The notes under the pieces are model-generated. The model was given only the letters and a program-made list of their open reading frames with translations, did not search any database and was not told where the DNA came from. From assembly GCF_045037415.1 (NCBI RefSeq), contig NZ_CP173439.1: a stretch of 64,000 nt of DNA; one strand, given 5' to 3'. This DNA comes from Escherichia coli. Lineage in GTDB: Bacteria; Pseudomonadota; Gammaproteobacteria; Enterobacterales; Enterobacteriaceae. Made by a program: the position numbers and the translations under genes. Numbering within the stretch: position 1 is the first letter of the stretch; each line of letters opens with the position of its first letter. Of the stretch, positions 350 through 2,319 are shown piece after piece.

Positions 350-1147
350 TTACTGATGCTGTCCGCTTTTCACCATTTCATCATCACTGATTGGCGTTGT
401 GTTTTTGGTCAGCACTCCAGCTTTACGTTTCTCTTTTAACCGGTAACTCTCTCCTTTGATATTCAGCGTGGTTGAGTGATGTAGCAACCGATCCAGTATC
501 GCTGTTGCCAGCACGTGATCTCCGAACATTTCTCCCCAGTCTGCGAACCCTTTGTTTGACGTCAGTATGATGCTCGCTTTTTCATATCGACGGTTCAGTA
601 GCCGGAAGAACAGGCTGGCTTCCTCTCTGTTCATCGGCAGATAGCCTATTTCATCCAGGATCAACACCCGGGCATAACTCAGTTGCTGCAGCTGACGCTC
701 CAGCCGGTTTTCCTGTTTCGCTTTCATCAGTGTCGCGATCAGTCTGTCCAGTGGCATAAACAGTACCCGATGTCCCGCATCCACCGCTTTCACGCCAAGA
801 GCTATGGCCAGATGAGTTTTTCCGACACCAGGAGGTCCCAGCAGGATCACGTTTTCGCTGCGCTCCACGAACGTCAGACCAGCCAGTTCCCGGACAACCT
901 TACGGTCGATGCCCGGCTGGAAGGTAAAGTCGAACTGCTCCAGCGTTTTGACCCACGGCAGACGAGCCTGCTTCAGCCTGGACTCCATACCGCGCTGATG
1001 CCTGCCGTTCCATTCCTGCTGTAGCGCCATGCACAGGAACTCCCGGTAGTTCAGCTCTTTTTTAGCTGCCTGTTCCAGCAGGCTTTCAACGTGATAACTC
1101 AGATGCTCCATTTTCAGGCGACTCAGCAGGACTTCCAGCTCATGCAT
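350..1147 (-). CDS. istB: IstB ATP-binding helper protein of IS21-family element
   Basis: Walker [12 protein letters not shown] and Walker B LILDEIGY motifs; ATGA overlap with istA stop. Confidence 0.85.
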
Positions 1148-2319
1148 CACAACAGCTCCTCATAGGCACTCAGTGGTCGATGTTCCACCTGACTGACCTG
1201 CTGCCAGAGCGGGGCGTGATGCTCCGGCACTGTCTGCCAGCCAGACGATGCCGAACAGAGGCGATGTGAGGCCACCAGTTTCTCATTACTGTAGATCCGC
1301 AACTCGTCATCCAGCGATATTCGTATCGATACCGGCTGACCACACAGCGCTTCGGGAACGCTGTAACGATTACCACCAACCTCGATATAGCTGTCCCAGG
1401 ACACATGGCGGATGTCGAATTAACTGGTATCGAAGTCCGTATCCGGTAACGGCTGCAGATGTTCCTGCTCCAGCGCGAAGCGCTGTTCCGGCGTTTCTTT
1501 GAACTGGCGAAGTTCCCGTTTGTCAGCCACATCGGCTATCCATTGCTCCAGTTGTTGATTAACATGAGTGAAGCTGTCGAACCTGCGGTACCGAACGAAG
1601 AAGTTCTCCTTGAGGTATTTCACCATCCGCTCAACCTTACCTTTTGTTCTGGCCCTGCGTGGACGGCATGCCCGTGGCAGGAAGTTATAGTGGTCGGCCA
1701 GCAACAGGAATCCGGAGTTGAACACGACTTTCCCGTTGTTATTCTTCAGCACCGCAGCCTTCTGGTTATCAACCAGCACCGTTTTCACACAACCACCGAA
1801 GTAGCGGAAGGCGCGAACCAGTGATTCGTAGGTATGCTCAGCATCCTGTTTTGGTGCGGCGAAGACATGGAAGCGGCGGGAGAACCCCAGCGTATTAACC
1901 GCAAAGTTAACTTTGCACCGTTGCCCGGCAACCTCCACCTCAACTTCGCCCCAGTCGTGCTGGAGCTGGTATCCAGGCTGAGTTTCGAAGCGAACTGTTC
2001 TTTTTGACGGACGCATTTTACGTTTGGGCTGGATGTAGTAACGCAGCATGGAACGTCCGCCCGTATAACCCATTGCCTTAATCTCCGCAAAGATAACCTC
2101 ACTATTCCAGACATTCTCTGCCAGGCGCATGTCGATGTAATCCATAAACGGTTTCAGCTTAACCATTTTGTGGCGGGTCTTTCTGGCTGGCGGTTCAGGG
2201 TATTTGAGGTAGCGTCTGACCGTCCGTTCAGAGCAACCAATCTGAGTCGCAATATCGACAATGTACGCGCCCTGCTGGCGCATTTGCTTTATCATGTAAA
2301 AGTCCTCTCTGCTCAGCAT
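1147..2319 (-). pseudogene. istA: IstA transposase of IS21-family element, interrupted by in-frame stop
   Basis: ORFs 1420..2319 and 1147..1404 are in the same frame, separated by TAA at 1420-1422; N-terminal HTH (IATQIGCSERTVRRYL) and DDE-type core. Confidence 0.8.

Follow-up and report, generated by a model that had tools for sequence, protein, structure and literature searches.

An IS21 copy, intact but for a probable inherited nonsense mutation in istA, on an Escherichia coli IncF virulence plasmid

A stretch of 64,000 nucleotides from the E. coli contig NZ_CP173439.1, which we call the window, carries near its beginning a complete copy of the insertion sequence IS21 in which the transposase gene, istA, is broken by a premature TAA at codon 300. 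Very probably this is a real nonsense mutation, inherited with an IS21 copy that is otherwise intact and resides on an IncF virulence plasmid of E. coli. Translation would stop after residue 299, and the predicted product would have the two HTH domains and the full DDE triad. What would be missing is the beta-barrel and the C-terminal tail, i.e., the parts that in IS21-family transposases serve in tetramer stabilisation, in docking into the IstB ATPase and in the strand-transfer switch. Our analysis suggests that the window copy is most likely unable to transpose alone, which would make it a non-autonomous element or pseudogene, and that it still provides a 2.1-kb stretch of homology for recombination.

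The element belongs to the IS21 family: it encodes an IstA with HTH, rve and Mu-like beta-barrel domains, although the frame is broken at codon 300, it encodes an IstB and it has TG...CA ends. The coordinates of its parts and of the two flanking genes are listed in Table 1. IS21, which is also known as IS8, is the type element of the family and is present on the IncP-1alpha plasmids R68/RP4 as well as in numerous E. coli genomes and plasmids, pUTI89 among them. The window copy resembles it in its length of 2131 bp, in its TG...CA termini, in the TGATG overlap between the two genes and in its DNA identity of 99.8-99.95%; with Tyr at codon 300, IstA would have 390 aa, and IstB has 265 aa. The window copy differs from IS21/IS8 in having TAA rather than TAC at codon 300, in an A92T replacement in IstB, in the lack of a target-site duplication and in being flanked by unrelated, truncated genes. 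The genes of the nearly identical copies on pUTI89 and on E. coli chromosomes are named 'IS21-like element IS21 family' by PGAP, and the IS21 copies in strains with an integrated RP4 are 99.8% identical to the window element. The cores of the two terminal inverted repeats, TGTCAACGCCAC and TGTCAGCGCCAG, match each other at 10 of 12 positions, and both are the same as the ends of the intact copies.

Table 1. Features of the IS21 copy and its immediate flanks in the window
Feature	Coordinates	Strand	Basis
Left flank: transposase gene of the IS66 family (ISEc22), truncated, ends at the IS21 terminus	1..289	-	PGAP at the identical NZ_CP069461.1 locus
Complete IS21 copy, 5'-TG...CA-3' termini	290..2420 (2131 bp)	-	Full-length identity of 99.86-99.95% to pUTI89 and E. 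coli chromosome copies
Terminal inverted repeat core, istB-distal end, TGTCAACGCCAC	290..301		Read from sequence
istB, helper AAA+ ATPase, 265 aa, frame intact	350..1147	-	Pfam, NCBIfam, PGAP coordinates
istA 3' remnant, codons 301-390 and TGA: beta-barrel (Mu-transpos_C_2) and C-terminal tail	1147..1419	-	Pfam
Premature ochre codon TAA, codon 300 (TAC Tyr in intact copies); next base T	1420..1422	-	Translation, copy comparison
istA 5' part, codons 1-299: both HTH domains and DDE triad D122, D184, E230	1423..2319	-	Translation, Pfam, NCBIfam
Terminal inverted repeat core, istA-proximal end, reverse complement TGTCAGCGCCAG	2409..2420		Read from sequence
Right flank: hypothetical gene, N-terminally truncated, unrelated to left flank	2421..2666	+	PGAP at the identical locus, sequence

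When the 390-aa IstA frame is restored, Pfam recognizes HTH_23 at residues 12-39, rve at residues 113-222 and Mu-transpos_C_2 (PF22483) at residues 291-361; the NCBIfam model NF033546 matches IstA with 286 bits (cut-off 160). IstB matches both Pfam IstB_IS21 (4e-90) and NCBIfam NF038214 (302 bits, cut-off 200) over its full length. The ATG of istB overlaps the TGA of istA as TGATG (1149-1145), and a GAGGAG is located 8 nt upstream of this ATG. Judging from the sequence, IstB may still be made from the TAA copy; loss of translational coupling or Rho-dependent polarity on istB is also possible. A scan of the whole element for promoters and terminators produced no more sites than shuffled sequence did.

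Translation of the minus strand from 2319 to 1144 gives one frame of 390 codons that ends at a normal TGA (codon 391), and codon 300 is its sole internal stop, a TAA that appears as TTA on the plus strand. The two open reading frames listed for this region are 1420..2319 (299 aa) and 1147..1404, which starts at an internal GTG (85 aa). Translation confirms the original prediction that these two pieces of istA are in the same frame, that a single TAA separates them and that no frameshift is involved. The 3' remnant is no longer translated as part of IstA.

The arrangement of reading frames is not a product of chance. The element differs from intact copies at only two or three of its 2131 positions (three in the case of pUTI89 and two in the case of a chromosome). 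One of these is position 1420, where the window has T and the intact copies have G, which corresponds to TAA versus TAC (Tyr) at codon 300. The TAC codon was read directly in the intact copies of pUTI89, two chromosomes and p2-LC-1302-2020. The change is Y300*, produced by a single transversion, TAC to TAA. The other variable positions are 874, which corresponds to IstB A92T, and 1398, which is a W308/R308 polymorphism among the intact copies. The A92T replacement is present only in one sub-lineage of the TAA copies, to which the window copy belongs (WP_001554960.1 versus WP_000544830.1), and codon 92 of istB precedes the Walker A motif by 12 residues. Codon 308 is within the conserved start of the beta-barrel. 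When 78 sequences with lengths of 384-410 aa were aligned, namely the restored query and 77 full-length homologs, this column was Trp in 71 of them, including the window copy; Arg308 occurs in the annotated intact E. coli allele WP_000952372.1, which is that of pUTI89 and two other intact copies.

By megablast against complete E. coli genomes, the element was detected in 708 of them at a coverage of at least 80%. An exact 61-mer centred on the stop is present in 15 of the 848 E. coli RefSeq records that contain the region. Of 683 PLSDB plasmids, 12 have it too, and these 12 are all from E. coli. One plasmid, pDLI.6n, has the TAA together with an extra SNP at 1404 and hence was missed by the exact probe; as a candidate for an intact allele at the left flank of the window it was rejected for the same reason.

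The plasmid NZ_CP069461.1 of strain FDAARGOS_1249 is 100% identical to the window over the element, and the istA of this plasmid is labelled by PGAP as a pseudogene, with the remark 'internal stop'. A RefSeq label thus already exists for the identical locus. The plasmid is collinear with the first 29.3 kb of the window at 99.7% identity; it belongs to the IncF plasmids and carries F-type tra genes, senB and genes for TonB-dependent receptors. Beyond these 29.3 kb, the window consists of IncF transfer and leading-region backbone and accessory genes, and the TAA allele is carried by a family of IncF virulence plasmids. Many other database entries name the 299-aa fragment 'IS21 family transposase' without any warning. 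The NF033546 model spans only about residues 11-293, and so, the fragment scores well above the cut-off (286 bits against 160), which probably explains these names.

What the truncation removes can be judged from IS5376 of Geobacillus stearothermophilus (PDB 8B4H, 8Q4D), which has the same order of HTH-1, HTH-2, DDE domain, beta-barrel and C-terminal tail, although it is another member of the family and from another host. The restored IstA aligns with the IS5376 IstA (PDB 8B4H) over residues 1-388 (E = 2e-82), and Tyr300 of one aligns with Tyr300 of the other. The IS5376 protein has its DDE domain at residues 120-285, with D124, D187 and E233 as the catalytic residues, followed by a beta-barrel at residues 300-355 that stabilises the IstA tetramer and then by a flexible C-terminal extension (PMC10122671). 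The DDE residues of the window IstA were mapped from these three by alignment. The stop is located at the start of the beta-barrel, and both HTH domains and the whole DDE triad are upstream of it. An IS5376 IstA(1-287), which lacks the beta-barrel and the C-terminus, is substantially reduced, but not said to be abolished, in stimulation of the IstB ATPase and in DNA integration, and point mutants in the barrel are likewise substantially reduced in both (PMC11208146); IstB itself is essential for integration (PMC10122671). The natural allele is 12 residues longer than IstA(1-287). Even so, Y300* removes almost exactly what that construct lacks, and we infer from this that autonomous transposition is lost. 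An autonomous copy would have an uninterrupted istA with beta-barrel and C-terminus, and the window copy has a TAA at codon 300 instead.

The original prediction that the element is probably transposition-defective unless complemented is therefore supported: intact copies have TAC, the Tyr is conserved, and the stop removes the beta-barrel and the C-terminus. As for complementation, the ends and the istB reading frame are intact, which makes mobilisation in trans plausible, and IstA from an intact IS21 in the same cell would probably be able to mobilise the window copy. No second IS21 copy able to complement was found within the window.

IS21 is known to make a second, shorter product from istA. 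The cointegrase is a short IstA that begins at an internal ATG, lacks eight N-terminal residues and is active (PMC10122671). The window product resembles it in being a shorter product of the same gene, and the Met9 codon is present in the window copy. However, the cointegrase keeps its entire C-terminus, whereas the window product lacks the 91 C-terminal residues, and both IstA isoforms from the window copy would end at codon 300.

A simple insertion of a member of the IS21 family is flanked by a target-site duplication of 4-8 bp. No such duplication is present at the window copy, where the adjoining bases read TTCTG at the left end and AACAG at the right end. Duplications do flank other copies of this element, for example GCTG in pUTI89 and, at one site in a chromosome, CCGT, and so, the absence at the window copy reflects rearrangement rather than a different type of element. 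As for the left flank, the neighbouring gene at related loci has the Pfam domain DDE_Tnp_IS66. The related plasmids usually have two TAA copies, as direct pairs in some plasmids and as inverted pairs in others, and all four combinations of the left flanks (ISEc22 and Phd/Doc sides) with the right flanks (ArsR and bactofilin sides) occur with TAA. No target-site duplication matched in any of these four combinations, including the reverse-complement pairings that would be expected after an inversion. Furthermore, the variants 2089 A/G and 874 T/C of the TAA copies occur in all four combinations. The mixed flanks and the mixed SNPs speak for homologous exchange between the two copies rather than transposition. 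The Phd/Doc-bactofilin site has the intact allele in p2-LC-1302-2020.

The presence of TAA in several flank contexts and in one chromosome could, taken alone, suggest that the element continues to move. However, the plasmid copies have no target-site duplications, and at the chromosomal site strain 142, checked directly, is intact and none of the other 67 genomes matches the stop-bearing 61-mer, and so, homologous recombination or gene conversion suffices without transposition. A copy that is probably immobile itself in this way still reshuffles the plasmid family as a stretch of homology, which is in keeping with the four observed flank combinations. The TAA lineage also shows further decay on other plasmids. 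There are IS3-family insertions at two points in istB, and one copy has a 1-bp deletion at the equivalent of window position 821 that splits istB (three loci in all, the deletion included). This decay fits an element that is no longer selected for function.

The one chromosomal TAA is in strain MMC-J-0105 (NZ_CM128543.1, 931079-933210), where the IS21 copy has TAA and 1398A and is bounded by CCGT, a clean duplication of 4 bp. This insertion site, duplication included, is common to 68 genomes. Strain 142, the one other genome that was checked directly at this site, has the intact allele, and the stop-bearing 61-mer had no exact match in any of the other 67 genomes that share the insertion. Two positions separated by 22 bp, 1398 and 1420, distinguish the copy in MMC-J-0105 from that in strain 142, and MMC-J-0105 also has a TAA plasmid with two TAA copies. 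A fresh transposition of the TAA element into this chromosome was considered and rejected, in view of the shared site, the lack of a 61-mer match elsewhere and the paired differences. The chromosomal TAA is instead either the result of a plasmid-to-chromosome gene conversion or an artefact of repeat polishing in the assembly.

Several explanations other than an inherited mutation have to be considered. A sequencing or assembly error, which the original prediction had offered as an alternative, would mean that the true codon is TAC and that the element is intact. The change is indeed a single base, and the chromosomal TAA of MMC-J-0105 may be such an artefact, since repeat polishing could have copied the base from the two plasmid copies. 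However, at least 16 independent E. coli assemblies, all of them complete, share the TAA although they differ in laboratory, country and year, and the exact 299-aa product is encoded on at least 1000 contigs in several sources (NCBI, ENA, JGI, MGnify and Logan). Sub-haplotypes that carry TAA have since diverged at 874, 2089, 1404, 1241 and 510, a pattern that random error cannot produce. Together with the 'internal stop' label from PGAP, these observations refute the suggestion of an error for the plasmid allele, and its probability is practically nil. It is also very unlikely that the arrangement is functional, i.e., that an active transposase arises from a natural two-ORF istA, from programmed readthrough at the TAA or from a C-terminal part that is translated separately. 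Such an arrangement would be consistent with two pieces in the same frame, with an in-frame GTG 15 nt past the stop and with an allele that is common in several flank contexts. However, the codon is a sense codon in hundreds of other E. coli copies, and it is TAC wherever it was checked directly. Database homologs with 58-89% identity are contiguous proteins of about 390-395 aa with both rve and Mu-transpos_C_2, the aligned homologs (58-98% identity) and the solved IS5376 protein are likewise contiguous, and no istA with a natural two-ORF split at the same place was found. Position 300 is Tyr in 77 of the 78 aligned sequences, in the motif F-D-T-(R/S)-Y-x-D-x-R-x-V-x-W-D, and the Mu-transpos_C_2 domain straddles the stop. 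The stop is followed by U, and UAA followed by U is the most efficient termination signal in E. coli. No Shine-Dalgarno-like sequence was seen upstream of the GTG at 1404, which is the sole in-frame start in the 3' remnant, and no tRNA genes, including suppressor tRNA genes, are encoded within the window. A product started at this GTG would begin at residue 306, without the first conserved barrel residues and untethered from the DDE domain, and copies of the TAA lineage go on to lose istB. Programmed recoding or a natural split would be expected to leave the stop conserved at the same place in active relatives, and 77 of the 78 aligned sequences have Tyr there instead, with only 15 of 848 E. 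coli records matching the stop-bearing 61-mer; low-level readthrough or re-initiation at GTG 1404 is possible.

A different explanation accepts the stop as real and supposes that IstA(1-299) has been retained for a useful role: as a trans-dominant inhibitor or repressor, it would bind the terminal repeats of IS21, poison tetramers and thereby stabilise the plasmid. Both HTH domains and the DDE domain would be retained in the product, and the allele occurs often, usually in two copies per plasmid. In addition, IstA bound to the ends of IS21 covers promoter elements located there, and the operon has been proposed to be autoregulated (PMC10122671). If this explanation were true, the plasmid family with two copies would damp the IS21 activity of its host, and the truncated protein would be a naturally arisen analogue of truncated-transposase inhibitors. 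However, hitch-hiking on a successful plasmid family is a simpler account of the frequency of the allele. There is no evidence of selection, the adjacent istB gathers insertions and a frameshift, and the promoter of a single-copy IS21 has been described as weak. For these reasons we consider an inhibitory role improbable.

Inactivation by point mutation is a common fate of insertion sequences, and an inherited nonsense mutation would place the window copy among the many decayed or non-autonomous elements that are annotated as 'pseudogene, internal stop'. Like them, it has intact ends and a transposase gene broken by a point mutation, and like them, it is kept through vertical inheritance with its replicon and through homologous recombination. 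It differs from them in no substantial way, except that the allele is unusually common (at least 1000 contigs), usually with two copies per plasmid. The proper annotation of the IS21 copy in the window is that of a pseudogene or non-autonomous element, and it should be left out of counts of active transposases.

Some other features of the window were noticed as well. A short distance from the right end of the IS21 copy is a cassette of 2374 bp (3451-5824, within the region 3445-5830) that looks like a Tn3-derived mobile insertion cassette. It is bounded by Tn3-family-like 38-bp inverted repeats, GGGG...ACG[T/G]TAAG, at 3451-3488 and 5787-5824, which match at 34 of 38 positions and are flanked by a 6-bp direct repeat, AATGTT. 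The cassette contains genes for an ArsR/HTH_5 regulator (3555-3830, minus strand) and for a fusion of an FAD-dependent pyridine-nucleotide disulfide oxidoreductase with a rhodanese (3952-5649, plus strand), and it has no transposase gene. Further along, the region 28500-31300 has an IS26 copy followed by an MFS transporter gene and an EamA-family gene, an arrangement reminiscent of a tet(A)-pecM-like resistance fragment. Finally, the region 58100-62800 encodes a CAAX-protease-like protein, an HlyD-family protein and a C39-peptidase ABC exporter, and this set resembles a microcin or bacteriocin export system.
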